Shown: positions 325-14,702, counted from the first letter of the stretch. The stretch: DNA of 14,702 nt from Candidatus Eiseniibacteriota bacterium (GCA_043810925.1 JBDRNT010000147.1:1-14702), one strand, 5' to 3'. Program-made: numbers and translations. The notes: generated by a model not told the origin, from the sequence alone.

Positions 325-410
325 GATCCACAGCGCGGGATAAGCGCTCCCTGCCGACCGCGATCAGGGGGGGGCGGAAAGAGCCTGCCGGGCGGGGGAG
401 CGGGGGAGGC
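325..410 (+). repeat. Two copies of the CCTGCC/G-rich intergenic repeat family
   Basis: GATCCACAGC...CCTGCCGACC (325-359) resembles 9134-9166. GCCTGCCGGGCGGGGGAGCGGGGGAGG (383-409) is nearly identical to 5728-5755. Confidence 0.75.
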
Positions 411-441
411 GTTTCCGCTTCAAGAACACGGTCATGGGGCA

Positions 442-2685
442 TCACGGCAATTTGCAGAACATCTCCCATTCTTCTTTCACCTTCACCATCAAGCGCCGGA
501 ATCTCCCATCCTCTCGGAGGGACTCGAACGACGTGTCACAGCTCGAAAGGAACGGATAGTTCACAAATCCGCACTTCACCGCATTCTCCAGCCAATCGAG
601 AGCTTCATCATGCATGCCTAGAAGGGCGTATCCCGCCGCGATCCTCCACGAGTACTCGAGATCCCTCCGAGAGGTTTTTGTCACCGCCTTGTCTATTTGC
701 ATCTCAGCCCTTGAACGCTCCCCGTTCCTTGCGTAGAGAAGAAACAGCAACAGACGGTCAAAGTCCAGCTTCGGCGAAGCGCCTTCTGACATTGCCATTA
801 ACGGGTCAGTCTCCGCCAACCTCCCTCCATATACAAGTGCGAAAGCATAGTGCATCCGAATTGCGGCATTGTCCGGCTCAAGCCCCCAGGCCACACGACA
901 GGCTTCAATCGCATGATTGAAACGGCCGCCCATGAAAGCAATCTCCGCACTGACGATGTGTCCGATCGGCGTCAGAGGATCTACTAGGAGAATTCTCTCA
1001 GGAATAGTCTCCGTCGCGGTCAGATTGCCTACCAGTGCATAGGTATGACAAAGCCAGTATAGACAGTCCACATTATTCGGCTCAATCTCCAGAGCGCGCT
1101 TCAAGTGCCCAATCCGAGAGCGCTGATCTCCCCGAAAAGCCCCGGACACCTGGCCTAGTACCAAATGGCCTAATGGTAGGTTTGGGTCGATTTCAAGGGC
1201 CTTCTGTGCCAATTCCTCCGCCTTGTCAATCTCTTCCTCCTGCCCCAGCCCCATGTTCACTTGGTGCCAGTACGCATAAGCCAACCCGGCGTACAATGCA
1301 GCATTCTCCCCGGCAATCTTCAATCCAGCTTCAAGGTATCGAATCGCCCCTCTTGAAGCGGACGCATTGTATCGCCATAGTTCACGGCGAGCCCGCAATA
1401 GGTATTCGTATGCCGTTACATTCGATACCTCTCGCGAGATCAGTTGCTGCCGTTCAACCGTGCTTAGTTTTAGCTTCAAGGCTTCGACGATGTCCTGGGA
1501 AACCTGCGTCTGCAGAGAAAAAACGTCGCCCAAGACACCCGTGTAGTGCTCCGCCCATACCTGGCTATCCCGCTGGGCATCGACCAAGCGGGATGTGATG
1601 CGCAGTCGGCCACCCGCTTTGCGTACACTGCCCTCAAGCAGATACTGGACATTGAGTCGCGCGGCGATCGTCCGAGTATCGTGCTGCGAACCTCGGAGCT
1701 TCATCGCGGAACTCCGCGATATTACTCTCAGGGGCCCAATTCTCGAGAGGTCTGTGATGAGCTCCTCGGTGAGCCCGTCAGCGAAGTACGCGCTGTCCTG
1801 CTCAGGACTAAGGTCTTCAAAGGGGAGTACGAGAATGGACATTTCGTCTGTATGTTCTGCTTGATTCTGTGCTCTGTCGGGCGAGTTGGTTATTGCGGAT
1901 TGGAACTCGTTGGCAGTCGCGAGACGTAGGTCCCTGTCCTTCGCGAGCATGTTTACAATTGCTTGCTCGAGATTCGTCGGGATCTCTGGTTGGAAGGCGG
2001 TGGGCGGCGTCACATCGGCATTGAGTATCAAGTAGATCAGCGCGGCCTCGTTGTCGGCACGGAAGGGACGGTAGGTCGTTAGCATTTCATAGAGGACGGC
2101 TCCGAGAGACCACAGGTCTGTCCGGTGGTCTACCGGTTCCCCCCGTATCTGCTCAGGAGACATGTAGGCGACTGTGCCGACCATAGTTCCCGGCCTTGTG
2201 ATGGCTGTGCCCCCCCTCATACGGGCGAGGCCGAAGTCCATGACTGTCGCTTTGCCTCTCGCCGTGAGCAGGATATTCTCTGGTTTGATGTCCCTGTGAA
2301 CGATCCCTTTCTCGTGTGCTTCCTTAAGACCATCAGCAATTTGGTCGGCTATTCTCACCGCTTCTTCAATCGGGACTGGTCCCCTCTGAATCTTGTTGCG
2401 CAGACTCTCCCCGTCGTAGTAGGCCATGACGATAAACAGACGTCCCTCCGGGGTTTCATCGATCTCGAAGATAGTGCAGACATTGGGATGGTCGAGGGCG
2501 GACGCTGCTTGGGCCTCGTGAAGGAATCGTTGTTTGGCTTGGTCGTCCTGTGTCAGCTCGGGAGGCAGAAACTTGATGGCCACGGTTCGCCTGAGCTTCG
2601 TGTCCTCGGCCTTGTAGACCACGCCCATCCCTCCCTCGCCGATCTTCTCAAAGATCTTGTAGTGGGAGATGGTCTGGCCGATCAT
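442..2685 (-). CDS. Hanks-type Ser/Thr protein kinase with TolB-like N-terminal-type domain and TPR repeats
   Basis: Intact kinase motifs GEGGMGVVY, VAIK, HRDIKPEN, DFG, MSPE and DLWSLG. These are followed by SILVLPFEDLS...YFADGLTEELITDL...LRVISRSS...LLEGSVRKAG (TolB-like module) and TPR-like helices. MIGQTISHY (ATG 2685) is the typical start of this family; the ORF track extends it to 2703. Confidence 0.93.
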   Translation of the reverse strand: MIGQTISHYKIFEKIGEGGMGVVYKAEDTKLRRTVAIKFLPPELTQDDQAKQRFLHEAQAASALDHPNVCTIFEIDETPEGRLFIVMAYYDGESLRNKIQRGPVPIEEAVRIADQIADGLKEAHEKGIVHRDIKPENILLTARGKATVMDFGLARMRGGTAITRPGTMVGTVAYMSPEQIRGEPVDHRTDLWSLGAVLYEMLTTYRPFRADNEAALIYLILNADVTPPTAFQPEIPTNLEQAIVNMLAKDRDLRLATANEFQSAITNSPDRAQNQAEHTDEMSILVLPFEDLSPEQDSAYFADGLTEELITDLSRIGPLRVISRSSAMKLRGSQHDTRTIAARLNVQYLLEGSVRKAGGRLRITSRLVDAQRDSQVWAEHYTGVLGDVFSLQTQVSQDIVEALKLKLSTVERQQLISREVSNVTAYEYLLRARRELWRYNASASRGAIRYLEAGLKIAGENAALYAGLAYAYWHQVNMGLGQEEEIDKAEELAQKALEIDPNLPLGHLVLGQVSGAFRGDQRSRIGHLKRALEIEPNNVDCLYWLCHTYALVGNLTATETIPERILLVDPLTPIGHIVSAEIAFMGGRFNHAIEACRVAWGLEPDNAAIRMHYAFALVYGGRLAETDPLMAMSEGASPKLDFDRLLLFLLYARNGERSRAEMQIDKAVTKTSRRDLEYSWRIAAGYALLGMHDEALDWLENAVKCGFVNYPFLSSCDTSFESLREDGRFRRLMVKVKEEWEMFCKLP

Positions 2686-2856
2686 CACAGCCCCCAAGCG
2701 CATGTGAGGAGTGACTTGTCGGTGATCATTGTAGCATCAGTACTGGAGGATTCCGACATGAAGGACTCGCGAGGAGGATCATCTGCTGGTGGAAGGAACG
2801 CGTCCTCCCCAACCTCCCATAGGCCGCGTTGTTGAACCAGACCGCTTCGCGGGACT

Positions 2857-3468
2857 CACGTAATCCGCTAGGAGTAAACGGAACGGTCGCAGGTTCGCAT
2901 TTCCGCAAACCGCGTCTCTGTAAGTCGCTATAATTATTGAAGATAGAACTGGCTCCCCAGGTAGGACTCAAATAACAACTTTTGGGCGGGAATGTCGGTT
3001 GGCTAAGTCGCGACGGACAGCGCGGTTACAGGCTTGCACTTTCGGGCTCTCGCCTGTGGCAGCAGAGACTCAGGGACTTTCGGCCGTTTTCACGGGATCA
3101 CGCCTGAGATCGGCCCTCTCGCGAGGCCGGGAATCGGGCCGTTTCGTCGGATTGCCCGTATGCTGCGGCCTTCCAACTCGCTCCTTGGCTTCAAGCTACC
3201 CCACCCATTGTGCCCGAGCCCCGTGCGCATTCCCGTGAGATCCCGGTACGAGATGCCTGCCGCCACGAGGCCAAACCGGCACAGCAGCCGCGCCTCCACA
3301 CACGCCAGTATTATTATAGAGGGCAAATCTATCGCAGCGCCCCCCCCGCAATCACTGAATCAGAGAGCCAGGGCCGCGAATCCAGCCTTGCTGGGGCAAA
3401 ATCGACCCAGATCTCGGCTTTCCGTAACCTCTGTGAATCCAACGCCGACGGAGTTTTCGATAGGCACA
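2857..3468. repeat. Copy 1 of ~610-bp diverged non-coding direct repeat (island junction / attP-like region)
   Basis: Collinear blocks shared with 13946-14553: CACGTAA, AACGGTCGCAGGTT, a 45/46-identical block (2947-2992), GGCTAAGTC, GCTCTCGnCTGTGGCAGCAGAGACTCAGnGACTTTCGG, CGGATTGCCC, GGCTTCAnGCTAC, ATAGAGnGCnAATCTATCGC, GGGCCGCGAATCC and GTAACCTC. Confidence 0.92.
2950..2969 (-). mobile_element. att core: 3' fragment of tRNA-Asn (T-arm 3' half, acceptor stem 3' strand, CCA)
   Basis: The minus strand reads (TTT)GAGTCCTACCTGGGGAGCCA, matching a tRNA end TTCGAGTCCTAC-CTGGGGA-G-CCA. A72/G73 with GGAGCCA is typical of bacterial tRNA-Asn. The 5' part of the tRNA is absent. Confidence 0.85.
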
Positions 3469-3570
3469 GGCGGAGCGGGCACCGTTCGGCGCGCTGCGTC
3501 TGAGACTCGGGTCCTTTGAGCGCTGGTTCATTCCTAGATTGCGGTTAGCCATGACGCAGCGGAGGAGGAA

Positions 3571-5340
3571 ATGAGCAATATAGGAGAGTTGCAGGTCTCG
3601 TACACAGCAAGGGGCCTGGTACGCTATCAGGTTAGGGTTGAGCACCAAAGCCTTCACAAGGTTCAGGAGATCAAGGGCGACAACCAGGCAATAGTGCTTC
3701 AGAAGGCGTATGCCGTGGCGGCGCGATGGGATGAGATGTGGGAAGCCCGCCAAGAGACAGAGAGGAAGCGCAAGGAGCGAGCAACCGCCGCCAAAGATGT
3801 CGAGGCGAAGAATCAACTTGCGGCGGAACGCACACGAGAGGCTCAGGAATTACACGAGTTTCTCAATCGGACTCTCGAGAACACACTCTCCATCGATGAC
3901 ACGATCGACTGGGACGGCCTGATTGACGATTCTGAGTACCCGGAGCCGGACCCCCAACGTCCCGCAAACCCTCCTCCCCCTGGAGCTCCCGAAGCTCCAA
4001 GAGAACCACAAGCGGACGAGCCTTGTTTCCAGCCGAAGCTAGGATTGATAGACCATCTGGCACGTGGGAAACGAGCGAGAAAGGAGACGGCTGCTAGGGA
4101 AGCGTTTGAAACAGCACACCGGGAGTGGGAATCAACCATATCCGACCAGAAGCAAAAGCACAGCGAGGCCATAGAGAGACACAAGCGAGCGTTACGAGAA
4201 GCGGGTCAGAAACACGAGGAGGCTCGGCGTCACTGGCAGGCGGAGCGGGAGAAGTACAAGAAGGCGCAAGGTGAGCGAAACGCTGAGGTTGAAACGAAGC
4301 GTCAAAGCTACGCAGCTGGAGATCCAGACTCGATAATGGACTACTGCGGAATGGTGCTGGATAATTCCTCCTACCCGGACTTCCTACCTCAATCGTACGA
4401 TCTCGAGTACAATCCCGAGAACCGCATTCTCATACTAGACTACCGCTTGCCGTCACCACAGGACCTTCCAACGCTGGTCGAGGTCCGGTATGTGAAGTCT
4501 AAAGACGAGTTCACTGAGAAGCACCTGTCAGATTCCAAGCTCAACCACCTGTACGACGATCTGCTGTACCAGATTGCCCTTCGCACGATACACGAGCTCT
4601 TCGAGGCCGACGTGATTCGCGCCATCGATAGCATTGTCTTCAACGGGTACGTCGAGTCAATCGATGCGGCCACGGGCCAGGAGACCAACGCCTGTGTTCT
4701 CACGGTGCAGGCTTCCCGCGAGGAGTTCGATGGTATTAACCTTGCGGCGGTCCAACCCCGAGCCTGCTTCAGGAAACTCAAGGGCGTGAGCAGCGCCCGA
4801 TTGCACAACCTGGCTGCTGTTGCTCCGATACTCGCACTTTCGCGAGAGGACAGGAGGTTCGTTCCTTCGCACGCTGTGGTCGATGCAATTGCGGAAGGAG
4901 ACAACCTTGCCGCAATGGATTGGGAGGATTTCGAGCATCTCATTCGGGAACTCTTTGAGAAGGAGTACTCGGTCGTCGGTGGGGAGGTGAAGGTGACTCG
5001 CGCCAGTCGCGATGGCGGCGTCGACGCTGTGATCTTCGACCCTGATCCGCTTCGAGGTGGCAAAACCGTAGTCCAAGCAAAGAGGTACACTAACACGGTG
5101 GGAGTCAGCGCCGTCAGGGACCTATATGGCACCGTATTGAATGAGGGAGCCAACAAGGGGATCCTCGTTACGACCTCGGACTATGGCCCCGATGCCTATG
5201 CGTTCGCGAAGGGCAAGCCCCTGGTCCTGCTGAGCGGTGGGAATCTACTGCACCTTCTCGCAGAGCACGGACACAAGGCGAGGATCGACCTCCAGGAAGC
5301 GAAGAGGCTAGCGGCTGAGAAACAGCAGGCAGAACACTAA
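3571..5340 (+). CDS. Mrr-family restriction endonuclease with long N-terminal coiled-coil/Pro-rich extension
   Basis: C-terminal Mrr_cat motifs WEDFEHLIRELF, SRDGGVDAV, VVQAKRY, VGVSAVRDLYG and KGILVTTSDY. SD GGAGGAGG lies at 3561-3568. Confidence 0.9.
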   Translation: MSNIGELQVSYTARGLVRYQVRVEHQSLHKVQEIKGDNQAIVLQKAYAVAARWDEMWEARQETERKRKERATAAKDVEAKNQLAAERTREAQELHEFLNRTLENTLSIDDTIDWDGLIDDSEYPEPDPQRPANPPPPGAPEAPREPQADEPCFQPKLGLIDHLARGKRARKETAAREAFETAHREWESTISDQKQKHSEAIERHKRALREAGQKHEEARRHWQAEREKYKKAQGERNAEVETKRQSYAAGDPDSIMDYCGMVLDNSSYPDFLPQSYDLEYNPENRILILDYRLPSPQDLPTLVEVRYVKSKDEFTEKHLSDSKLNHLYDDLLYQIALRTIHELFEADVIRAIDSIVFNGYVESIDAATGQETNACVLTVQASREEFDGINLAAVQPRACFRKLKGVSSARLHNLAAVAPILALSREDRRFVPSHAVVDAIAEGDNLAAMDWEDFEHLIRELFEKEYSVVGGEVKVTRASRDGGVDAVIFDPDPLRGGKTVVQAKRYTNTVGVSAVRDLYGTVLNEGANKGILVTTSDYGPDAYAFAKGKPLVLLSGGNLLHLLAEHGHKARIDLQEAKRLAAEKQQAEH

Positions 5341-5379
5341 CCTTGATTTTGCATAAACTGCGACACCGAATTCGGTGGG

Positions 5380-5514
5380 CGGGAGCCAGGGGGCCAGGGC
5401 TGGCTTGCTCAAACAGTCCTCGCGCGCCGACCCAAACATTTAGGCGTCCCGCCACAGAGGGTGAGGCCGGCGCGCTGCGGAACTCGCCGCTCAGCCCTAA
5501 CCCCCTGGCTCCCG
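5380..5514. other. Long imperfect inverted repeat (rod-like hairpin, ~135 nt)
   Basis: CGGGAGCCAGGGGGCCAGGGCTG (5380-5402) pairs with CAGCCCTAACCCCCTGGCTCCCG (5492-5514) at 21/23 positions. GCGCGCCG (5422-5429) / CGGCGCGC (5468-5475) is nested inside. A perfect palindrome CACCGAATTCGGTG (5364-5377) precedes it. Confidence 0.7.
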
Positions 5515-5707
5515 ACTTGGCCCGAGACGAGCGATTTTTTGGAAAATCGAGGCTAATCCACGCGGCGCGGCTCATGGTTCCGCTCATAGACCATAGGCTC
5601 TGCCGAGCTCCACGAAGAGCTAATCGGCGTGGTCGGCGTTTTCACGTCGACGCACATCAGCTGCGGCGCGTGTGCGTCGCACCGTGGTTTGCGGGGAGCG
5701 CCGCGAC

Positions 5708-5755
5708 GACCCACTGCGCCAATCTGCGCCTGCCAGGCGGGGGAGCGGGGGGAGG
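5708..5755 (+). repeat. CCTGCC/G-rich intergenic repeat copy
   Basis: GACCCACTGCGCCAATCTGCGCCTGCC resembles GATCCACAGCCAGGCAATCCGCGCCTGCC (9134-9162). Positions 5728-5755 differ from 383-409 by one substitution and one extra G. Confidence 0.8.
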
Positions 5756-5831
5756 GGTGGCCTATGTGGTATTGATGGCGATTGCATCTGATAGGCATAG
5801 CCCAATTCCCCGGCGAGGAGGTCTTCGGATC

Positions 5832-6506
5832 ATGAAATACCTGTTGATTCTAACCGCAGTGGCTATCTGCTCCCCCGTTTTCGCTCAGACCTTTTCTGAC
5901 GGGACGTTTTCGTCTTCAGACTGGTCACTCCTAGTCATTGAATTCGGCCCCGGCGGTTCGGCAAGCGCCTACCAGGAATCTGCCGGTGGAAATCCTGGGT
6001 CATTCCGCTGGTACACGCACACAGTAAACGAACCAACGCCCACTGAGGGCTCCCTAATTCACGTCTATCATATTCGAGAGGATGCGGTCTGGGATCCTTC
6101 TGCGGATGGACCCATCGAGTCAGTCGGCTTCAGCGAGGATCGGATGACGGAGGAGATCACTTCCACCATTATGATCGGGGGGACCATCGCCTTACGGCAG
6201 AACGGTGTGTTCTTCTGGTCTAACACGGCTTACACTATTGACCATGGAGGCTGGCAGACGCTGTCCGCAGGAGGTCTGCTGTCTTCTGACTTCCGGGCTT
6301 CTGTGGACTCAACGCTTCACCCTGACTTCACGACAATGGGTGAACCAATATACTTCGGATTCATGCGGGCGAATTCTCGCGATGCCGGATATCCCGGCAC
6401 TGTGACGACCAGTGGGGGCACTGACAACTCGTCGGTGAGCGTCACGCCCTCGCCTGTGGCCGTTGAGTCTGCATCGTGGAGCCAGATCAAGAGGCGGTTT
6501 CGCTAG
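5832..6506 (+). CDS. Secreted hypothetical protein (224 aa) with C-terminal W-x-x-I-K-x-x-F-R tail
   Basis: SD GAGGAGG (5815-5821) precedes ATG 5832. Signal peptide MKYLLILTAVAICSPVFA|Q, a beta-rich S/T/G/D body, and the end PVAVESASWSQIKRRFR. The upstream extension to 5343 in the ORF track is non-protein-like and crosses repeats. Confidence 0.85.
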   Translation: MKYLLILTAVAICSPVFAQTFSDGTFSSSDWSLLVIEFGPGGSASAYQESAGGNPGSFRWYTHTVNEPTPTEGSLIHVYHIREDAVWDPSADGPIESVGFSEDRMTEEITSTIMIGGTIALRQNGVFFWSNTAYTIDHGGWQTLSAGGLLSSDFRASVDSTLHPDFTTMGEPIYFGFMRANSRDAGYPGTVTTSGGTDNSSVSVTPSPVAVESASWSQIKRRFR

Positions 6507-6512
6507 AAGGCG

Positions 6513-6539
6513 CACGCCCTGCCGGGCCGGGAAGGCGTG
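6513..6539 (+). repeat. CCTGCC-containing hairpin directly after stop codon
   Basis: CACGCC-CTGCCGGGCCGGGAA-GGCGTG begins 7 bp after the TAG of 5832-6506 and has no U-tract. Confidence 0.5.
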
Positions 6540-6573
6540 ACGCCATGAACCCGTATTGCAGGAGGTTGTAGTC

Positions 6574-7338
6574 TTGACTCTTGTGTTGTCTGAATTGAGC
6601 ACGCTCGGGATTGCGATGGCTGCTGATTCCGCAGTGACCTATACCCATAGTCTGACCGGTCTAGCGCATGCACACCCAAACGCAGCTCGGAAGTTGCACT
6701 CCGTTCCCTATCTCAGCGCCGTAATTTCTTGCTGGGGAGTCGGCACCATCGATGATACGCCCACTGATGAGTGGTTGGCTTCATTCATTAGTAGCAGCAC
6801 CTCTGCCGGATCACTCACAGAGTTCGCTGAGTCCCTCGCAGATAGCCTGAACCGGCTTGTTATACCAACGAGCACGAACGAGAGCTCTCTGGGATTCCAT
6901 CTCAACGGATTCGAACCCCATGAGGGCGAGCGGTATCCTTCGTCTTTCCACATTCACGACGGTATGAGCACAACCCTTCGTGATCGGGGAATCTCAGTCG
7001 ATCCCCACAGATTCAACGCAAACCATGATATTCCTCCAAGTCTCTTTCGAGAGATGGCCGCACGCAACGAAGCGTGGATTACCCGGAACGGTGACTATCG
7101 CTTTTACGCAGAGATCTTCCAGCGGCTGGAGGCGTTCTTCGCCAGTCTTCGGTCCCACGGGATCATGATCCCTGATTCTCACACCATCGCTGACCGAGCC
7201 GAGTACTTGGTGTTTCAGATTCGCACAGTTTCACATCTATACCGCCTGAGCAATCTTGTCCCGGGCATCGGTGGAGGAATCCGGTACATGACCATTACGC
7301 CCGCCGGCATTGAAAGCGAAGGAGTACAATACTACTAG
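6574..7338 (+). CDS. Ntn-hydrolase fold protein, proteasome beta / HslV / Anbu-like (254 aa)
   Basis: SD GGAGG (6561-6565) precedes an in-frame TTG at 6574, giving (M)TLVLSELSTLGIAMAADS. This places Thr1 and Asp17 at proteasome-beta spacing, with an ARKL lysine motif and a C-terminal GIGGGI resembling the SGG motif. Confidence 0.75.
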   Translation: MTLVLSELSTLGIAMAADSAVTYTHSLTGLAHAHPNAARKLHSVPYLSAVISCWGVGTIDDTPTDEWLASFISSSTSAGSLTEFAESLADSLNRLVIPTSTNESSLGFHLNGFEPHEGERYPSSFHIHDGMSTTLRDRGISVDPHRFNANHDIPPSLFREMAARNEAWITRNGDYRFYAEIFQRLEAFFASLRSHGIMIPDSHTIADRAEYLVFQIRTVSHLYRLSNLVPGIGGGIRYMTITPAGIESEGVQYY

Positions 7339-7427
7339 AAGACTCTCTGGTCGACCGATCCTTGAGCACTGGTTTGGCACGGCTCTTCAGCGGAAAGGGC
7401 GTAAGATGGGCGTCTCAGAAAAGAAGG

Positions 7428-7694
7428 CTATTCTAGTTGGTCCTCCAACAACATCATCATGAACTCCAATTCTTCAACTTTGGCCTGAAGATCCGAGATT
7501 TCGGACTCCTGCCCCTTCAGTTGTCTTTCAAGATCATCGATACGCGACTCGGCGTCTTCGATGCGCATCGAGGCGTCTGCCAGGTTAGCTCTTAGAGCCC
7601 GACCTTCTTGACATCCACATGATCCGATTACAGCCAAGACAGCCGCCAGGCAGAACAGACGGTTCACCTTCCGAAATACAAGACTTCCCCCCAT
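7428..7694 (-). CDS. Small exported/lipoprotein-like coiled-coil protein
   Basis: Basic N-terminus, a hydrophobic stretch ending VIGSC (lipobox-like), then heptad-patterned IEDAESRIDDLERQLKGQESEISDLQAKVEELE. Confidence 0.6.
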   Translation of the reverse strand: MGGSLVFRKVNRLFCLAAVLAVIGSCGCQEGRALRANLADASMRIEDAESRIDDLERQLKGQESEISDLQAKVEELEFMMMLLEDQLE

Positions 7695-7726
7695 TGCGCA
7701 TTGTTCCTTCCTGAGAAGAATCTAAT

Positions 7727-7855
7727 CTACCGTAGGGCCGAGCTGAGCAGCGTGATCTTCCTCGTCACGACCTCATCCCCCGCCTTGAGCCTGGCGAAGT
7801 ACACGCCAGAAGCAACAGGTGCTCCTGTTGCATCGCGGCCGTCCCACTTTAGCCG
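7727..7855 (-). pseudogene. Remnant of a C-terminal FlgD Ig-like domain
   Basis: LKWDGRDATGAPVASGVYFARLKAGDEVVTRKITLL matches only the second half of the FlgD-Ig tail (compare LVWDGCDDRGIPLGGGLYFLRL...RKVILLR at the end of 10648-12417). The upstream residues are not FlgD-like, lacking the NPFNP motif. Confidence 0.75.
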
Positions 7856-8237
7856 CGGTTCCTCTGAAGCGGGTCGATCCGCTCCCGGCGGGTGCGCCTC
7901 TCGGATTCGCTCTCTCGTGAACCTGCCATGGCTCCTGAATGAGGCGGGGATCTCCCCCACCGGCTCGGTCGTTCGTGCTGCCCGCCTATTCTACCATCCC
8001 GCAAGGTGTTTGATTCACGAGAATTAGGTGTCCCTAGTGGTCCCGGCCATGTGGCGCAGGTCGACGACTGGCCTTTTCCTTTGGCCCGTCTAGGTTTACA
8101 GGTCTGGTATCTCGGCCGCGGCGAGTGATATTCTTCGAAGCAGCCGGTTATGCTGTCAGGTCCCAATCCGGTCGGGCCAGAATTCGACGGACCGAAGCAC
8201 GGCGGCGGATACTTTTCGAGAAACCGGGAGGTCAGTA

Positions 8238-9080
8238 ATGGAACAAGTCGACCAGGCCGCTCACGCCCAGAGAATCTGGAACGGAATCCACGAGACTTAC
8301 CGGCGACTTCAGACGAAACCCGAGGAAGCGATCGCCCCCCAGAATAATTCCGGTAGTGAGCCGCACCAGGAATACCTCCCGGACACCATGTGGCGAATCC
8401 CCGTGATCAAGAAGAGCGACGACCAGCTGTACAGCGACCTCTGCTTCTGCGTCTTTAACGCTGGGATAAAGGGGAGTCTTCTCGATTCAAAGTGGCCAGG
8501 TATTGCAAAAGCATTCGCTGGATTCCGAGTCGATGAGGTTGCGGCGTTCCCGCAAGACTATGCGGAAGTCATCCTCACGGATCCTACTGTCCTGCGGAAC
8601 CGGCGGAAGATCACGGGCTGTCTCAAGAACGCATTGGAAGTTGGCAAGTTGCGTCATCAATGGGGTTCGTTCGCCATATACCTTACGAACTACGCCCAAG
8701 AGCACGGACCCAACGCTCTCTCCGACGACATACAAGCTCGGTTTTCAGGAATCGGCCCTGCAACTGGTCCCCAGTTCCTGAAGGATCTCGGCTTCGACAT
8801 GTTCAAGGCGGACGCTCATGTTAGGAATATCCTATATCGGACCGGACTAATTACAAGCAAGAATGCGTCTGCACATGACGTTTCATCGGCCTTCGGGCTA
8901 CTCATTGGTGCAGAATCGGAGCGAACCGGGCGACGGAACATTTGGTTGAGTAGCATAGACTGGATCTTGTACTGCTTCGGAATTGGGGAAGAACTCGAAC
9001 ATCCCGTCTGTAAACCGGGAAAGCCTCTCTGTGACGAGTGCGGCGCTTCACCTTCTTGCCCTAAGAATGGGGTGAAGTAG
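8238..9080 (+). CDS. DNA glycosylase-like protein: 3-methyladenine glycosylase I (Tag)-like N-part, HhH-GPD-type D-x-H motif and EndoIII-type [4Fe-4S] motif
   Basis: SDDQLY..L...VFNAG.....KWPGIAKAFAGF....VA....DPTVLRNRRKI...LKNA resembles Tag. FSGIGPATGPQFL is HhH-like, followed by KADAHVRNILYRTG and CKPGKPLCDECGASPSC (C-X6-C-X2-C-X5-C). SD GGAGG lies upstream. Confidence 0.8.
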   Translation: MEQVDQAAHAQRIWNGIHETYRRLQTKPEEAIAPQNNSGSEPHQEYLPDTMWRIPVIKKSDDQLYSDLCFCVFNAGIKGSLLDSKWPGIAKAFAGFRVDEVAAFPQDYAEVILTDPTVLRNRRKITGCLKNALEVGKLRHQWGSFAIYLTNYAQEHGPNALSDDIQARFSGIGPATGPQFLKDLGFDMFKADAHVRNILYRTGLITSKNASAHDVSSAFGLLIGAESERTGRRNIWLSSIDWILYCFGIGEELEHPVCKPGKPLCDECGASPSCPKNGVK

Positions 9081-9085
9081 AGCAT

Positions 9086-9185
9086 GCCTGCCGACCGGGC
9101 TCGCGGGAGGAGGAGGAGGGGTGGGGCGTGTGTGATCCACAGCCAGGCAATCCGCGCCTGCCGACCCGAGCAAGCGGGGGAGAGG
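9086..9185 (+). repeat. Two CCTGCC/G-rich intergenic repeat copies
   Basis: GCCTGCCGACCGGGCTCGCG (9086-9105) starts 6 bp after the TAG and is identical to 9785-9804. A second copy GCCTGCCGACC lies at 9156-9166. Confidence 0.85.
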
Positions 9186-9203
9186 ATCGGTGGGCTGCGA
9201 GTA

Positions 9204-9212
9204 TGGTATCAT
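9204..9212 (+). promoter_or_regulatory. Possible extended -10 promoter element for 9255-9767
   Basis: TGgTATCAT fits TGnTAnnnT about 43 bp upstream of the GTG start. No good -35 element. Confidence 0.3.
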
Positions 9213-9254
9213 TCCATCACGGTTGAAACAGCGTTTGTGCCTAAGGAGTGACTT

Positions 9255-9767
9255 GTGCCCCCTTGGATCTCCATCGCCCTGCAGATTCTTGGCGTGGTCG
9301 GTGTGGTAGGCTCCCTTGTCCTTATCTGGTGCCAAACACGGGTAGACCACAAGCAGCGGCGGCGTGAGTCGACTATGTCGTTTATCGCGGCCATGTCCGA
9401 GTATCGCTCCATCGATCACGAGCTATATCCAACTGCGAGTGATTCGGAGACCGGTATGTCGCCACAGATGATTGATCAACTCCTCGCGGATCTGATTGAC
9501 TCGGCTAAGGCGGCGGAGTTAGTCGCTCAGCTTGAGAACTTTGCCGCCGGCGTGAACCAGGGCGTCTTCGACATTGATGTCGTCAACGCAGCGAAAGGCG
9601 GATATCTTCTCTCCTTCTATGAGCGGTGGCGGCCGTACATGCAAGCTAGAATCAGGACCTCGTCTTACCCCAATCGCCTTTTTGACCAGATTGAGAAGCT
9701 CGTAGCGGATATCGCCAAGAAGCGGGGCAAGCCAATCCAGGCACCCCTCGATCGGAGACAGGGATAA
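9255..9767 (+). CDS. DUF4760-like membrane-anchored protein
   Basis: SD AAGGAG (9243-9248) precedes a GTG start. N-terminal TM helix, RRRESTMSFI, LENFAAGVNQGVFDIDVV and LFDQIEKLV follow the DUF4760 pattern as I recall it. Confidence 0.65.
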   Translation: MPPWISIALQILGVVGVVGSLVLIWCQTRVDHKQRRRESTMSFIAAMSEYRSIDHELYPTASDSETGMSPQMIDQLLADLIDSAKAAELVAQLENFAAGVNQGVFDIDVVNAAKGGYLLSFYERWRPYMQARIRTSSYPNRLFDQIEKLVADIAKKRGKPIQAPLDRRQG

Positions 9768-9784
9768 AGAAGCGACAGCAGATA

Positions 9785-9894
9785 GCCTGCCGACCGGGCT
9801 CGCGCGGCGGAGCGGGCAGGATAGCCTGCCGAGCGGGCGGACCGGCCAGCATCGCCTGCCAGCCGGGCTCGCGGGCGGAGCTGGGCTGGAGGCG
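9785..9894 (+). repeat. Three tandem CCTGCC repeat copies forming imperfect hairpins
   Basis: GCCTGCC occurs at 9785, 9824 and 9854. CCTGCC...GGCAGG pairs over 9786-9820. CGCCT-G-CCAGCC...GGCTGG-AGGCG (9853-9894) forms an 11-bp stem with one bulged G. Confidence 0.85.
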
Positions 9895-10043
9895 GATGGG
9901 ATTTGCAGTTGGGAAAGGGCGAGTCAGTGACCCGATGAGGCCCACCGTTTCAACTCTAAGATCCGCTCAGAGCTGAAGAAACGAATTTACAGAAAAGATG
10001 TTACACCCCCAAGAACAAAGGGACAGTTCTCAACAAAGGGCAC

Positions 10044-10586
10044 TCAGCGGAACATCGTCTTGATCATGCCCCATGTCGACTCTTCTGTACCCGTAGGGCC
10101 GGTCTGGACAGTTCCACCAATGATCTCAGACCATAGGTCACCTATCCAACCGCACGTGTCATAACCTCCAGTCAGCCCGACGACTTCCGCCATTGAATTG
10201 TCTTCGACTGCTCGGTAGGTCACCGTGGCACAAAGATAGGGAAGCGCCATACAGTCTGCGAACTGCAGATCCGCACCCTGCACGATAATGCAGTCACCAG
10301 GAGTAGGAGGTACGCCAACCCAGCCGGGACCGAGCAAGAAGTACTCGCACCCCTGAAATTCCAAAGACCTGTCGTAGTTGCAGAATGTGACGCTATAAAC
10401 GAATAATCCCCCATCATGCGGGTTGCCAAGGAGCCATATATCCACCAATACATAGCTGTTGACCTCAACTTCGATGTGATCAGGGCCGTTGCCGACGATT
10501 TCGTCGAAGTCGAGTTCGACGTACGGTTCACTGGCCATTGTGGAAAATGCCATGCACAGGCCGCCTAGTATCGCCAATGTCTTCAT
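10044..10586 (-). CDS. Secreted protein (180 aa), beta-sandwich/cohesin-like domain, C-terminal TWGxIK tail
   Basis: SD GGAGG upstream, signal peptide MKTLAILGGLCMAFSTMA, and the end PTGTEESTWGMIKTMFR. The body is homologous to the N-terminal domain of the 13664 gene. Confidence 0.85.
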   Translation of the reverse strand: MKTLAILGGLCMAFSTMASEPYVELDFDEIVGNGPDHIEVEVNSYVLVDIWLLGNPHDGGLFVYSVTFCNYDRSLEFQGCEYFLLGPGWVGVPPTPGDCIIVQGADLQFADCMALPYLCATVTYRAVEDNSMAEVVGLTGGYDTCGWIGDLWSEIIGGTVQTGPTGTEESTWGMIKTMFR

Positions 10587-10647
10587 TATCTTCTAGACCT
10601 CCCTCCATTCATATCAGACGCGAAAGCTACCCATCATTAATCAACAG

Positions 10648-12417
10648 TTATCTCAAGAGAATTACCTTCCGGCAGATGTCCAGGTCATGCGCCCAAAGCC
10701 TCAAGAAGTAGAGACCCCCGCCAAGGGGGATTCCTCGATCATCGCAGCCATCCCAAACAAGCATTTTGGCGCCGGCTTCCTCATATCCGGCCACCAGACT
10801 CCTAACGTGCCGGCCCCGGATGTCATAAGCGTTGATTGCAATAAATCCGGATTTTGAAAGATAATACTGTATGGTGACAGCCGGGTTGAATGGATTCGGG
10901 TAACTCTGAAGGAACACACTTCCCAAGCCGGTGTGTGTGTTCAATACTGTGGTGGGAACATCGAAAAAGAACCTCGATATGAATCCATCCGTATCACTGC
11001 TGTCACTGCCGTCTCCCAGTGTAGTGTCGTAGACTTCAGGTGGGGTAGCCGGGAAATCTATAGACGAGGTTGTACCCCCAAGGACAACAATTCCTGTGGT
11101 GTTGGTGGCCAGTGAAAATCCACGATCGCTGCTGCTTCCCCCGATATAAGATGAATAAAGAAGTTCCTGACCACCGGCATCCAGCCTCGCAAGAAACGCA
11201 TCATGATCACCGCCACCAAACAGAGGATAATCCGCATCAGGCGTTACCGGAAAGTCGTTCGATTCCGTCTCGCCGCTGACATTTATGTTCCCGAACCTGT
11301 CAACTGCTAATGCCCAGGCCCGATCCTCATCGCTGCCTCCAAGATAGGTTGAATAGACCAAGGTACTGAGATCAGAACTTAACTTCGCTATGAACAAATC
11401 CCGGGGTCCGCCCAACGTGCCATAGAGACTGTCATCTGTCATTGGGAAATCGTCAGATCTTGTACCTCCGGCCACAACCACATTGCCCAGACTGTCTCTC
11501 CCAATGCCGTACGCCGCTTTTTCTAAATCGGACCCTCCTAGATATGTTGAGTGACGAAGGAAGCCTCCGGTTGAATCGATTTCCGAAATAAATATATCCA
11601 AGGTTCCGCTGAGGGATGTGTCATAGGCATCTGATGTAACAGGAAAATCATCGGAATCAGTCATTCCCGTTATGTATGCTTTTCCGGAATCACCTAGCAT
11701 TACCGAAAAAGGATAGTCTGTAGATGATCCTCGCAAGAACGTTGAATAGGTAAGTGTGTCTCCAGATGAGCCCAGTCTTGAAACATATCCATCCCAACCA
11801 TAATTCGGCGCGTGGTCTTCCTCGTAGGCTCCGGGAGTCGTTGGGAAATCTGCGGATTGCGTTCTCCCACACAAGAGAATACTGCCGTCGTGAGTCAACG
11901 CCAATCCGTACGCTCGATCAGAAAATTCCACGCACCCACCATCATCTTCACCGCCAAGAAACCTTGAAAATATCAGACTGTCTCCATCTTCATCAAGTTT
12001 GGTTATAAAACAGTCGCTGCTCCCACCATTGTACGATGATTCATCTGTAACGGGGAAATCTTCTGACATTGTCCAGCCAGATATCACTGGGTTTCCAGCG
12101 GGGTCAACGGCAATCGGATGAGGCCAGTCGCCACTCGATCCTCCTAGAAGCGTAGAATAAACAAGTACTTCGCCTTCCGGTTCGATTTTCGTAACGAACC
12201 CGTCATAGGGTCCTTCGAGCAGCGAATCATAGGCGCCGGGCGTAGTCGGGAACCCAGTGGATCTCGTGAATCCGGTAACATACGTGTTTCCCAGCGAATC
12301 GAGAGCTACTCCAAGGACTGTGTCGTAGTCGATCCCGCCGAGAAACGTACTCCAAACAAGACCCGGATCAATAACAAGCGGAAGCGAGGAATCGTAAGAA
12401 GAGGCTTCAAATCCCAC
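10648..12417 (-). CDS. C-terminal part of SBBP-repeat protein: repeated propeller blades plus FlgD-Ig tail
   Basis: Repeated units (Y/W)ST(F/Y)LGG...D....IAVD..GN.YV.G.T.S.DFP.T..AYD......D.FV.K. The tail is SYPNPFNPAVTI...WDGCDDRG...GLYFLRL. This is not a true start but the continuation of the upstream ORF. Confidence 0.85.
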   Translation of the reverse strand: MGFEASSYDSSLPLVIDPGLVWSTFLGGIDYDTVLGVALDSLGNTYVTGFTRSTGFPTTPGAYDSLLEGPYDGFVTKIEPEGEVLVYSTLLGGSSGDWPHPIAVDPAGNPVISGWTMSEDFPVTDESSYNGGSSDCFITKLDEDGDSLIFSRFLGGEDDGGCVEFSDRAYGLALTHDGSILLCGRTQSADFPTTPGAYEEDHAPNYGWDGYVSRLGSSGDTLTYSTFLRGSSTDYPFSVMLGDSGKAYITGMTDSDDFPVTSDAYDTSLSGTLDIFISEIDSTGGFLRHSTYLGGSDLEKAAYGIGRDSLGNVVVAGGTRSDDFPMTDDSLYGTLGGPRDLFIAKLSSDLSTLVYSTYLGGSDEDRAWALAVDRFGNINVSGETESNDFPVTPDADYPLFGGGDHDAFLARLDAGGQELLYSSYIGGSSSDRGFSLATNTTGIVVLGGTTSSIDFPATPPEVYDTTLGDGSDSSDTDGFISRFFFDVPTTVLNTHTGLGSVFLQSYPNPFNPAVTIQYYLSKSGFIAINAYDIRGRHVRSLVAGYEEAGAKMLVWDGCDDRGIPLGGGLYFLRLWAHDLDICRKVILLR

Positions 12418-12449
12418 AGTCTCAACGCCAAGAAGAACGTATCCACCGT

Positions 12450-13664
12450 TTACTTCCAGCCTTGCGCCGCCTCTACCTGGTACAGGGTAGGCTTGGCTTC
12501 AATCATGTCTCCAAGGGCCGTAAAAATCAACAGGGCTCCATCATCACGAATACAAAGGCTGTCGTGGCCTTCGTAGTCTAACGCGAATGCGCTCGGTTCT
12601 GTGCCGGGCTGCACGACCACATCGTATTTGAGATAGCCATCTGACCCTTGATAGTACTCGACATCAATCCCCGGACAAAGTTCTCTGTAGGTAATTCCAC
12701 TGTACGAAGGAACGTCTGTACACCAACGTGCTGGGTCGTTCCCTAGAAAGAAATTGAATTTTCCTGGAAGCTCCTCAGCTGTGTTAATCTGAGAGGCGTA
12801 TCTTGCACCTTCGAAATGTGTTTCAACAACAACTCCCTGAACATGAAGCGTAGTTGGAATAGGAGCGTCCCAACTTGGATCAGACCACGAGTCACTCACG
12901 AACTCACGCTCGAGCACTCGGAATCGATCAACTACTACTTCTGTGTCCAAGAAATACACTGTGCCGCCCGATCCCCTGATATAATACTGCACGGCATCAG
13001 GGAGTTGCCCCTCGTTTTTAATGAAACGAATGGGATGGGATGCAACACTCGCAAGACCATCTCCAGACCAGGCTGGCGATTCACCTTCGCCAGAATCTTC
13101 TCTCCCGCCACTTTGTTCCCCACCATCCTCTCCACCATCCAGCACCGAATCCACACAGATCGTCGGGCCTTCAAAGGCAACGAAGGTAGACTCGCCCACA
13201 TCCTTGTTGAACCAGGCAGACAAGTCCGGATTCCATTCCAGCGTCCCGCATGAATCCCCCGGAGTGACGTAGAATTTCAGTCGAGCAAACTCGTAGGGCA
13301 CCTGAATCGGTGTTGAGATGGAGAAATCTGTGGCCTGGAGAAGGAGCCAGCCCAGGGAGTCTTGCTGCACAGAGGTGTTCGTCCAGCCTGACGGTGAGTT
13401 GTAGATGGTGGCCGTAGTTTCTTCCACCCATGAGAGCGCGCCAGTCGTGTCTCCCACAGTGACGCCGTACGAAATGACCGAGTCGGTGCCGGTGAACCAG
13501 AGTCGCACGAGCACCGTATCGGTCGGTTCGATCTGGAGCGTGTCGGGACCGTTCGTCGCGTTCGAGTCCAGGTCGGCGACGATGGAGAGACCGGCCAGAG
13601 CCTGTGGAGCCGTAAATTGCATGAGAGCCACCAACGCCAGTACGATCGGCAATGAGCGACGCAC
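12450..13664 (-). CDS. N-terminal part of SBBP-repeat protein: signal peptide, cohesin-like domain, acidic G/E/S linker, and the conserved pre-SBBP domain
   Basis: SD AAGGAGG (13676-13670) precedes GTG 13664. Signal peptide (M)RRSLPIVLALVALMQFTAPQALA. Motifs FIKNEGQ, NFFLGNDPARW, ITYRELCPGIDVEYY, LKYDVVVQPG and DDGALLI. The ORF-track start at 13895 is probably over-extended. Confidence 0.85.
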   Translation of the reverse strand: MRRSLPIVLALVALMQFTAPQALAGLSIVADLDSNATNGPDTLQIEPTDTVLVRLWFTGTDSVISYGVTVGDTTGALSWVEETTATIYNSPSGWTNTSVQQDSLGWLLLQATDFSISTPIQVPYEFARLKFYVTPGDSCGTLEWNPDLSAWFNKDVGESTFVAFEGPTICVDSVLDGGEDGGEQSGGREDSGEGESPAWSGDGLASVASHPIRFIKNEGQLPDAVQYYIRGSGGTVYFLDTEVVVDRFRVLEREFVSDSWSDPSWDAPIPTTLHVQGVVVETHFEGARYASQINTAEELPGKFNFFLGNDPARWCTDVPSYSGITYRELCPGIDVEYYQGSDGYLKYDVVVQPGTEPSAFALDYEGHDSLCIRDDGALLIFTALGDMIEAKPTLYQVEAAQGWK

Positions 13665-14017
13665 AGGAGCCTCCTTTGTCAGGAACGAACCTTGGGATTC
13701 GGGTTCCGACACGCCGGGGATGGCCACTCGGTAGTGATCCATGGGCTCCTGAGCGTTGGAGTGGCCGGTGCCAGTACATTCAAGGTAGCAGCGGTTTCGC
13801 GGCTCGTCGAATGTCGGGGGGTAAAGTCTCTGGCGTGATCTCAGAGACCAGAGATCGGTGGCGGGTGGGCTGTGGAGTCCTGGCAACGACGCCACAAACG
13901 AGGGATGCGTGATGCTCCAGGATTGCTCCGGTCTTAGCCGTTGTCCACGTAACCCCTTACGGCTAGGTTTGTAAACTAAACGGTCGCAGGTTTGTTCTTG
14001 CGAATACCGTATCTCTC

Positions 14018-14030
14018 TAAGTCATTGATA
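14018..14030. promoter_or_regulatory. IHF-consensus binding site next to att core
   Basis: TAAgtcaTTGATA is a perfect match to YAAnnnnTTGATW, 15 bp from the tRNA-derived core. Copy 1 keeps only TAAGTC (2921-2926). Confidence 0.5.
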
Positions 14031-14045
14031 TTGCTGGAATTAAAC

Positions 14046-14065
14046 TGGCTCCCCAGGTAGGACTC
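14046..14065 (-). mobile_element. att core: 3' fragment of tRNA-Asn (second copy)
   Basis: Identical to 2950-2969 and lies within the 36-bp exact match 14043-14078 / 2947-2982. Confidence 0.85.
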
Positions 14066-14702
14066 AAATAACAACTTTCGGGCGGGAAGGTGCGTCGGCT
14101 AAGTCACAATGGAGTCGCCAGTTGCAGCGGCTGGGTTTCCTGCTCTCGGCTGTGGCAGCAGAGACTCAGAGACTTTCGGGCATTTCCGCCGGAACGCGGC
14201 CCCTTTCGGCCCGCCCCTGGGCACAGAAACTCGGCCAATTGGCGGATTGCCCCGGGTGTGGATCTGGCAACCCGTTCTGGGGCTTCATGCTACATCGCCA
14301 GGTGGGCTCGAAATGGCCATACATTTCCGGGTAAATCAGGTGCGGCACACGTACGGCATCAAGGCAAAATCGGTACAGATTGCGGGCCTCAGATGCCCCT
14401 TACATAGAGAGCGAATCTATCGCTGCAACAGCCCAGCCACTATTGGGCAGCGGGCTTGGGCCGCGAATCCCACACCACCGAATCCAAATCAGCCCCGAAC
14501 TCCCCATCTGTAACCTCAGCCAGCTCAGCGCGGACGAGTTTCCGGTAGGGACACCCCGTGCCTAGCCTGACTTCCGCAGTTTCGTGCCTCTCGCGGTTTT
14601 TTTCGAGGAGGGGGACGGTATAAGTGTGTGTCCTTGCGTGCTGGGTGGGCGCGGAGGGCCATGTAGTGCCGACCTACCCCCTTGCCTGAGCGGTTTTGAT
14701 CT

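Follow-up and report, generated by a model that had tools for sequence, protein, structure and literature searches.

A low-copy family of co-oriented intergenic repeats in an accessory region of a Candidatus Eiseniibacteriota genome

Introduction

Mycobacterial interspersed repetitive units (MIRUs) are intergenic minisatellites of 40-100 nt that occur singly or in tandem, in variable number and oriented with the flanking genes, at tens of genome-wide loci, and they carry small coupled open reading frames (ORFs). The attC repeats of sedentary integrons are species-specific and lie on the same strand. Each attC site has R'' and R' boxes with conserved, mutually complementary AAC and GTT triplets (PMC4889954). 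In this study we describe nine short intergenic units in a 14,702-nt stretch of DNA (the window), which is the entire contig C147 of a 3.85-Mb metagenome-assembled genome (MAG; 185 contigs, 91.7% complete) of a Candidatus Eiseniibacteriota bacterium (GCA_043810925.1 JBDRNT010000147.1:1-14702). The units form a genuine family of direct repeats, low in copy number and confined, within the sequences searched, to one island, and we tentatively read them as minisatellite-like boundary repeats.

Like MIRUs, the units are intergenic and occur in single or tandem copies; unlike MIRUs, the family sits in one 9.5-kb stretch, and one gap only is spanned by an ORF (9084-9251). Repetitive extragenic palindromic (REP) sequences, bacterial interspersed mosaic elements (BIMEs) and BOX elements share with the units a short, GC-rich, intergenic sequence, a modular arrangement of leader, core and tail and the capacity of some copies to form a hairpin, whereas the units all lie on one strand, are not genome-wide and lack a palindromic core. 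The att repeats of tandem tRNA-gene islands are comparable as co-oriented direct repeats that bound accessory modules, but the units have no above-chance similarity to the tRNA and tmRNA genes of the MAG or to the tRNA-Asn of relatives and lie on the strand opposite to the tRNA-Asn fragments of this contig. With integron attC sites, and with clusters of attC sites lacking integron-integrases (CALIN), the units share a position on one strand behind the stops of short accessory ORFs, confinement to one region and a polarity unaffected by occasional reversed genes. They differ from attC in length, being 25-42 nt as opposed to boxes plus a variable terminal structure of 20-100 nt (PMC4889954), and in keeping their sequence but not their fold, the reverse of attC.

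Sequence, position and polarity of the units

The bare hexamer CCTGCC is not enriched in the window, where its 15 matches (13 on the plus strand and two on the minus strand) compare with a shuffle mean of 10.1, and 15 of 200 shuffles reach that number. The longer pattern CCTGCCRRSC has nine matches, on the plus strand only (350, 384, 5729, 6518, 9087, 9157, 9786, 9825 and 9855), against a shuffle mean of 0.36, with none of the 200 shuffles reaching nine. This shuffle probability is optimistic because the pattern was written after the copies had been seen, a weakness from which a genome-wide comparison is free: the 10-nt head has 207 matches on both strands of the 3.85-Mb genome, nine of them in this 14.7-kb contig, and a 13-nt pattern has 26 genomic matches, of which eight are on the contig, all on the plus strand. 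A leader, GAYCCACWGC, has three matches (0.12 expected), all on the plus strand at 325, 5708 and 9134, and these stand 11-15 nt upstream of three units. The leaders and units are as follows:

325..334, plus strand: leader 1, GATCCACAGC, by pattern match
350..380, plus strand: unit 350, head CCTGCCGACC with a G8 tail, a marginal member, by head pattern and model
384..415, plus strand: unit 384, by head pattern, model and leave-one-out
5708..5717, plus strand: leader 2, GACCCACTGC, by pattern match
5729..5759, plus strand: unit 5729, 103 nt upstream of the ATG at 5832, by head pattern and model
6518..6547, plus strand: unit 6518, within a strong, flank-stemmed hairpin (6509-6544), a marginal member by sequence
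9087..9118, plus strand: unit 9087, 7 nt past the stop of the glycosylase-like gene, by head pattern, model and leave-one-out
9134..9143, plus strand: leader 3, GATCCACAGC, by pattern match
9157..9188, plus strand: unit 9157, 98 nt upstream of the GTG at 9255, by head pattern and model
9786..9817, plus strand: unit 9786, first of three tandem copies behind the DUF4760 gene, by head pattern, model and leave-one-out
9825..9849, plus strand: unit 9825, a short copy, by head pattern and model
9855..9894, plus strand: unit 9855, folding into an imperfect hairpin of 17 pairs in which one G is bulged, by head pattern, single-stranded DNA (ssDNA) fold, model and leave-one-out

Each unit is about 25-35 nt long and consists of the invariant head CCTGCC-RRSC and a G-rich tail, frequently with GGAGCGGG; the units differ among themselves, the head remaining constant while the tails drift. 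They occupy five intergenic gaps, singly or as two to three tandem copies, and always lie on the plus strand regardless of the direction of the neighbouring genes. Units 350 and 384, for example, are placed just beyond the 3' end of a minus-strand gene. Tandem spacings are 34 nt (350/384), 70 nt (9087/9157) and 39 and 30 nt (9786/9825/9855). Two pairs of distant copies are nearly identical: 383-406 and 5728-5751 agree at 96% over 24 nt, and their units (384 and 5729) bracket 5.3 kb, while units 9087 and 9786 are identical over 20 nt, the preceding G included, and bracket 0.7 kb containing the DUF4760 gene. Two segments between units, 5729 to 6518 (790 nt, start to start) and 9157 to 9786 (630 nt), hold a single gene, and two gaps between units (5.3 and 2.6 kb) carry several genes on both strands.

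The initial annotation of this DNA had listed nine intergenic plus-strand CCTGCC copies, three of them shortly past stop codons, together with three leaders and a near-identical pair on opposite sides of a supposed att junction. All of these sequence observations held: the nine copies lie outside long ORFs, and three begin 7 nt (9080 to 9087), 12 nt (6506 to 6518) and 19 nt (9767 to 9786) past the last base of a stop codon.

A sequence-only model built from the nine copies scores them at 16.6-23.3 bits and the next best place in the window at 4.7 bits, a separation that follows by construction, since the nine were the training set. When each copy was held out in turn, seven of the nine were recovered, ranking among non-training places across the genome first (four copies), second (two) or fourth (one).

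Two further features accompany the units. An ORF of 55 codons (9084-9251) starts 4 nt past the glycosylase-like stop, ends 4 nt before the DUF4760 start and runs across units 9087 and 9157; although reminiscent of the coupled ORFs of MIRUs, it is probably a chance occurrence in GC-rich DNA. The two genes behind a leader and unit also share the motif TGGTATYRW (5767-5775 and 9204-9212), 46-60 nt before their starts, which may be an extended -10-like element.

Folding of the units

When folded as ssDNA, two of the nine units exceed their shuffles, namely 6518 (z -3.7 on the plus strand and -2.9 on the minus strand) and 9855 (z -2.4 and -2.0), whereas unit 384 reaches z -1.35 and the remaining six range from -0.9 to +1.5. 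RNA folds of the stretches around the units are no better than those of shuffles (z -0.03 to -1.55 on the plus strand and +2.44 to -1.75 on the minus strand). The pairing of CCT-G-CC with GG-AGG around a bulged G, by which a hairpin family had been proposed, is predicted at 384 and 9855. At 9786, CCTGCC pairs with GGCAGG without a bulge; at 6518, the stem is formed by flanking bases and CCTGCC is not part of it. The stems of the two better-folding units are in different registers, and ssDNA folding found neither inverted arms nor a fold common to the nine. The hairpin family of the initial annotation is borne out only in part, the bulged-G pairing being predicted at two units, and its suggestion of recognition as folded ssDNA is not supported, the head being conserved and the fold not. 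The family is defined by sequence, not by fold, and the RNA and ssDNA z-scores rule out a conserved hairpin for six to seven of the nine units.

Known elements considered

Identity with attC is ruled out, as had been anticipated, by the lack of an AAC/GTT box pair at any unit. Strict RYYYAAC...GTTRRRY pairs occur once per strand in the window, neither of them complementary at 6/7 positions or more and neither at a unit; relaxed R-box pairs number 18 in the window, compared with 29 +/- 7 in shuffles, and none is at a unit. The integron integrase model TIGR02249 has 20 matches in the MAG, all below its 265-bit cut-off, and none on C147, the ends of which are open. The best match, on contig C112, scores 111.9 + 81.1 bits with model positions 179-236 unmatched, and is thus missing the part expected to carry the extra domain of about 35 residues that marks integron integrases. 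A CALIN does not need an integrase next to its array. That match belongs to a 3.4-kb contig on which 2303-3268 encodes a 321-aa tyrosine recombinase, the next frame being read as the start of an IS91-type transposase; beside the recombinase, 1917-2048 holds a C-terminal fragment of 55 aa with a 70-bit match to the last part of the integron-integrase model.

A linked tyrosine or HUH recombinase, which the initial annotation had proposed to look for, was not found: the MAG has 14 matches to PF00589 (tyrosine recombinase) and three to PF01797 (Y1, similar to REP-associated tyrosine transposases, RAYTs; on C14, C115 and C15), all of them off the contig. Neither CCTGCC nor GGCAGG occurs within 400 nt of the three RAYT-like genes. 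These genes are flanked by TTTCGGTGACACC-type and GGGGTCAGAGCT-type repeats, different from the units, which recur in small tandem clusters on C38, C71, C106 and C148 and are the real genome-wide REP-like families of the MAG. A genome-wide REP or BIME is ruled out for the units, which have only chance-level matches outside C147, and IS200/IS605 ends are ruled out by the absence of PF01797 from the contig and of a consistent hairpin.

Several further candidates were also rejected. Intrinsic terminators are not indicated, with 12 terminator-like sites in the window against 12.3 expected and none on the plus strand at the units; on the minus strand, a single such site (9792-9776) extends over the first bases of unit 9786. 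No sigma-70-like promoter coincides with a unit on the plus strand. A clustered regularly interspaced short palindromic repeat (CRISPR) array is ruled out, as the units differ mutually and, in metagenome contigs, the letters separating tandem copies are similar to one another and to the leader; a k-mer array scan of the MAG returned REP-like clusters only, cas genes not having been searched for. The standard four-run G-quadruplex pattern is present at none of the units, the four such motifs of the window all lying elsewhere. A tRNA-derived core is likewise rejected, since the units align with the 42 tRNA and tmRNA genes of the MAG at scores that do not exceed those obtained after shuffling the units, and the same was found against the tRNA-Asn of relatives and the tRNA-Asn fragments described below. 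An 11-nt match between one unit and the 3' end of a tRNA-Arg(ACG) gene on C94 has an alignment score equal to the null; it is discounted because the search pattern forced most of it.

Search for the family elsewhere

Equal frequency in core intergenic regions on both strands had been named beforehand as speaking against a special role for the motif, and we found the motif to be missing from the MAG outside this contig. There, a profile built on the nine copies met only two weak places (E 2.3 and 8.4). Across 17 other genomes of the phylum, the sequence model gave between zero and six weak matches each, on both strands (best E 0.024), and those listed were on different contigs. The 20-mer pattern, allowing up to two mismatches, had 14 matches in the same genomes compared with 12 for a reversed control; the 14 were inspected and are unlike the units and without the tail. 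A 20-mer scan of a public genome collection gave at least 120 loci, those listed all being single, coding-like matches; in our reading the 20-mer itself can be translated as the peptide LPAGLA. That scan was uninformative. In metagenomes, a 24-mer scan had no match, and a gapped leader-core-tail pattern found 25 loci with one match each, none clustered and none (0/25) preceded by GAY or carrying the complete leader. Plasmid records had no match to 9075-9900. No second locus bearing the family was found in the MAG, the 17 phylum genomes or the public pattern scans, and, as judged from these sequences, the family is private to the 14.7-kb contig within everything searched.

Alternative joins in metagenome contigs

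Parts of the window are present in three sequencing runs of one study, in Logan contigs that are short and of low depth; no RNA run was listed as containing it. Each of the three contributes one joint near the units that departs from the order of the window. In the first run, 9111 is joined to 9786 with 30 other letters between, and the same letters are found at a loose end at 9111 in the third run. In the second run the sequence returns from 9809 to 9087 after 33 intervening letters, and in the third 335 is connected with 9087. Each of these joints coincides with unit borders. The inserts are similar to one another and to the leader, and imply putative tandem copies that repeat about every 54-57 nt. 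The joints hint that other arrangements of the units may exist, including alternative tandem ones. They are a hint and not proof of cassette movement, because the matched sides are only 25 nt long, and the form joining 9111 to 9786 is not a simple excision product, because its leader differs from that of the window. Depth over the unit-bearing bins is 0.6-5.5 in the three runs, without a high-copy pile-up, and coverage gaps are meaningless at such depth.

Gene content and tRNA-Asn context

The genes of the window are the following:

442..2703, minus strand: Ser/Thr kinase with TolB_N and TPR domains, by family search
3571..5340, plus strand: gene similar to Mrr-type (type IV methyl-directed) restriction enzymes, PADLOC type IV methyl-directed restriction endonuclease, E 4.9e-68
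5832..6506, plus strand: 224-aa protein of no family, between units 5729 and 6518
6574..7338, plus strand: 254-aa protein of no family, with no unit after it
7428-7694 and 7727-7960, minus strand: two small ORFs
8238..9080, plus strand: methyladenine-glycosylase-like gene, by family search
9255..9767, plus strand: DUF4760 protein, between units 9157 and 9786
10044-10586, minus strand: gene
10648-12417, minus strand: gene with SBBP repeats and a type IX secretion system (T9SS) tail
12450-13895, minus strand: DUF7948 gene

The genes between units are accessory. The DUF4760 and 224-aa proteins were found in only one of 18 phylum genomes, the window's own, and viral contigs contained no relatives of the DUF4760 or 254-aa proteins. 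The kinase family, conversely, is expanded and occurs in all 18 (best other match 48% identity), and the contig is therefore taken as native to the lineage. An Rfam scan of the window returned no family at E <= 1 other than a match to a snoRNA model (E 0.22) that is noise.

The initial annotation had placed an att junction of tRNA islands here. ARAGORN found no tRNA gene in the window, but its minus strand carries two identical tRNA-Asn 3' fragments, separated by 11,096 bp and each contained in one copy of a non-coding element:

2874..3520, strand not assigned: copy A of an element of about 650 bp, with a tRNA-Asn 3' fragment at 2950-2969 (minus strand)
13971..14600, strand not assigned: copy B of the element of about 650 bp, 78% identical to A, its own copy of the same tRNA-Asn 3' fragment lying at 14046-14065 (minus strand)

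The 20-mer common to both copies differs at two positions from the 3' end that tRNA-Asn(GTT) has in two genomes of the class; there is no tRNA-Asn among the 42 tRNA and tmRNA genes of the MAG. Identity between the copies is patchy, and the mismatches have no codon phase (24/23/19 in the longest block). The element was not found in 60 relatives, and plasmid records had no match to 2870-3520. The pair may mark where tandem islands meet, or may represent a structured RNA whose end resembles a tRNA. Units lie on both sides of the first fragment. The islands of the initial annotation have a basis, because the two tRNA-Asn 3' fragments are present, though without an integrase. A metagenome joint from 2927 to 14142, together with loose ends, points to further copies of the element.

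Co-oriented tRNA-Asn 3' fragments also occur about 2 kb apart in a genome of the same family (G011), with accessory ORFs between them that each consist of one long frame:

G011, contig C301: tRNA-Asn fragments near 8917, 11040 and 12985
G011, contig C6: tRNA-Asn fragments at 3601, 3630 and 5975, with a perfect 29-nt tandem

An ORF with a methyltransferase domain and a Big_5 ORF lie between fragments in these arrays, with core genes to one side. None of the seven frames scanned in a G011 array has an integrase domain, and no tRNA gene lies within 1.5 kb of the C301 fragment at 8917. Repeat-bounded accretion occurs in this family, as these fragment arrays with their accessory ORFs attest, and the arrays here and in the relative suggest that such accretion of modules of one or a few genes may be common in the lineage.

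Possible roles of the units

We favour the interpretation that the units are minisatellite-like boundary repeats with a fixed polarity, which local recombination spreads and which promote it in turn, and we hold it with a confidence somewhat short of even. This interpretation fits best because it accommodates the invariant head, the tandem copies, the near-identical pairs, the gene-independent polarity and the restriction to one accessory stretch. Units would be copied and homogenised locally via slippage, unequal exchange or gene conversion, and recombination between two units would delete, duplicate or swap the gene module between them, which is feasible because the copies point the same way. 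We infer that recombination between units, either homology-driven or by an unknown enzyme, spreads the units and reshuffles the modules. If the units only mark local reshuffling, the locus would be a tidy case of a fluid, strain-specific island in an uncultured phylum and would introduce no new principle.

Several observations weigh against this interpretation. Homologous exchange leaves the origin of the unrelated genes between copies unexplained, and an invariant 10-nt head with drifting tails suggests selection on a recognised sequence, which would suit a protein-binding site better than DNA that is merely passive. The leave-one-out tests failed to retrieve units 350 and 6518, weak members that owe their place in the family only to the 10-nt head and their position. 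The metagenome contigs show no excision or insertion product, and their joints, with shorter sides of 25 nt, a depth of 2-2.6 and a likeness of 90, are flagged by the tool as unreliable, with the warning that such joints often arise from repeats or other organisms. Finally, the incompleteness of the MAG leaves room for further copies in unassembled DNA.

The constancy of the head would also suit a cis-acting expression signal for the plus-strand genes, such as an operator, a transcript-end or an RNA-stability element read by an island or host factor, a possibility that we consider unlikely. Three of the five plus-strand genes have a unit within 19 nt past the stop, two genes have a leader and a unit upstream followed by the common TGGTATYRW, and units 6518 and 9855 are strong hairpins. 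Rho-loading sites are C-rich and G-poor; the minus strand of the units has the same composition, and units could for that reason stop antisense transcripts. The motif is nevertheless missing from the rest of the genome, and it is consequently not a general host signal; neither a plus-strand sigma-70-like promoter nor a hairpin-plus-T terminator lies at the units, and none of the contig's proteins was recognised as a DNA-binding regulator. Neither unit 350 nor unit 384 is attached to a plus-strand gene, the plus-strand genes with stops at 5340 and 7338 have no unit, and fold z-scores are non-significant for six to seven of the nine. More doubtful still is the proposal that the units are sites of a new, non-attC system that moves single-gene cassettes inside tRNA-Asn islands with a recombinase encoded elsewhere. 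Its appeal lies in same-strand sites confined to one accessory region, as is typical of sedentary-integron attC, in the segments of 790 and 630 nt with one gene each, in a polarity independent of gene direction and in a cargo of defence-like or accessory-like genes (type IV restriction enzyme-like, glycosylase-like and DUF4760). The metagenome joints at unit borders, the outcome of the core-genome comparison in both orientations and the repeat-bounded accretion seen in G011 are consistent with it as well. The contig, however, has no recombinase, no match in the MAG reaches the integron-integrase cut-off, and the units have neither a conserved fold nor inverted arms. Leader placement is inconsistent: the 5.3-kb segment ends with a leader, whereas the 0.7-kb one begins with it. 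Of the five gaps between units, two contain several genes in both orientations; the leader in the variant join is not that of the window, and a second locus was not found in any search. The single-gene insertion sites of the initial annotation accordingly retain their two flanked segments and lack both the fold and a recombinase gene on the contig. A second, finer tier of mobility, in which a sequence-defined core of about 25 nt and an off-contig recombinase would move single accessory or defence genes within tRNA-Asn islands, is improbable to a similar degree; were a dedicated enzyme involved, it would constitute a cassette system outside the integron paradigm and would widen the search for cassette arrays beyond attC-based tools.

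It is very improbable that the contig is foreign, whether mis-binned or recently transferred, and that the units are the ordinary REP of its true or donor genome. In tetranucleotide distance from the genome mean, the contig ranks at the 97.8th percentile among 183 pieces of equal size, atypical but within range, and further variant copies of the unit occur in the source-like metagenome, both of which would suit a foreign origin. Against it, GC content is 0.558 for the contig and 0.564 for the genome, the kinase family is expanded throughout the 18 phylum genomes, and proteins with T9SS tails and SBBP repeats are present. The depth profile is without the pile-up expected of a high-copy repeat, and neither the 120 genome-collection loci listed nor the 25 metagenome loci are clustered. 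Composition and the missing pile-up together make a foreign REP unlikely.

Additional sequence features

Upstream of the first leader, 261-306 holds about 2.5 tandem copies of a 23-nt unit, GGTCACCACCWGTTTYCGCGG, found on this contig only; a loose end at 275 in one run suggests a further copy or another context of this tandem. Downstream of the restriction-enzyme gene, 5380-5402 and 5492-5514 form a 23-nt inverted repeat, 91% complementary, with an 89-nt loop. Metagenome contigs vary within that loop (5430-5461) and end at 5457 and 5513, as if other versions exist. The 224-aa protein and the 180-aa product of the minus-strand gene at 10044-10586 have a similar C-terminal motif, S-x-W-x-x-I-K-x-x-F-R (6468-6506 and, on the minus strand, 10044-10085), which may be a lineage-specific sorting signal.

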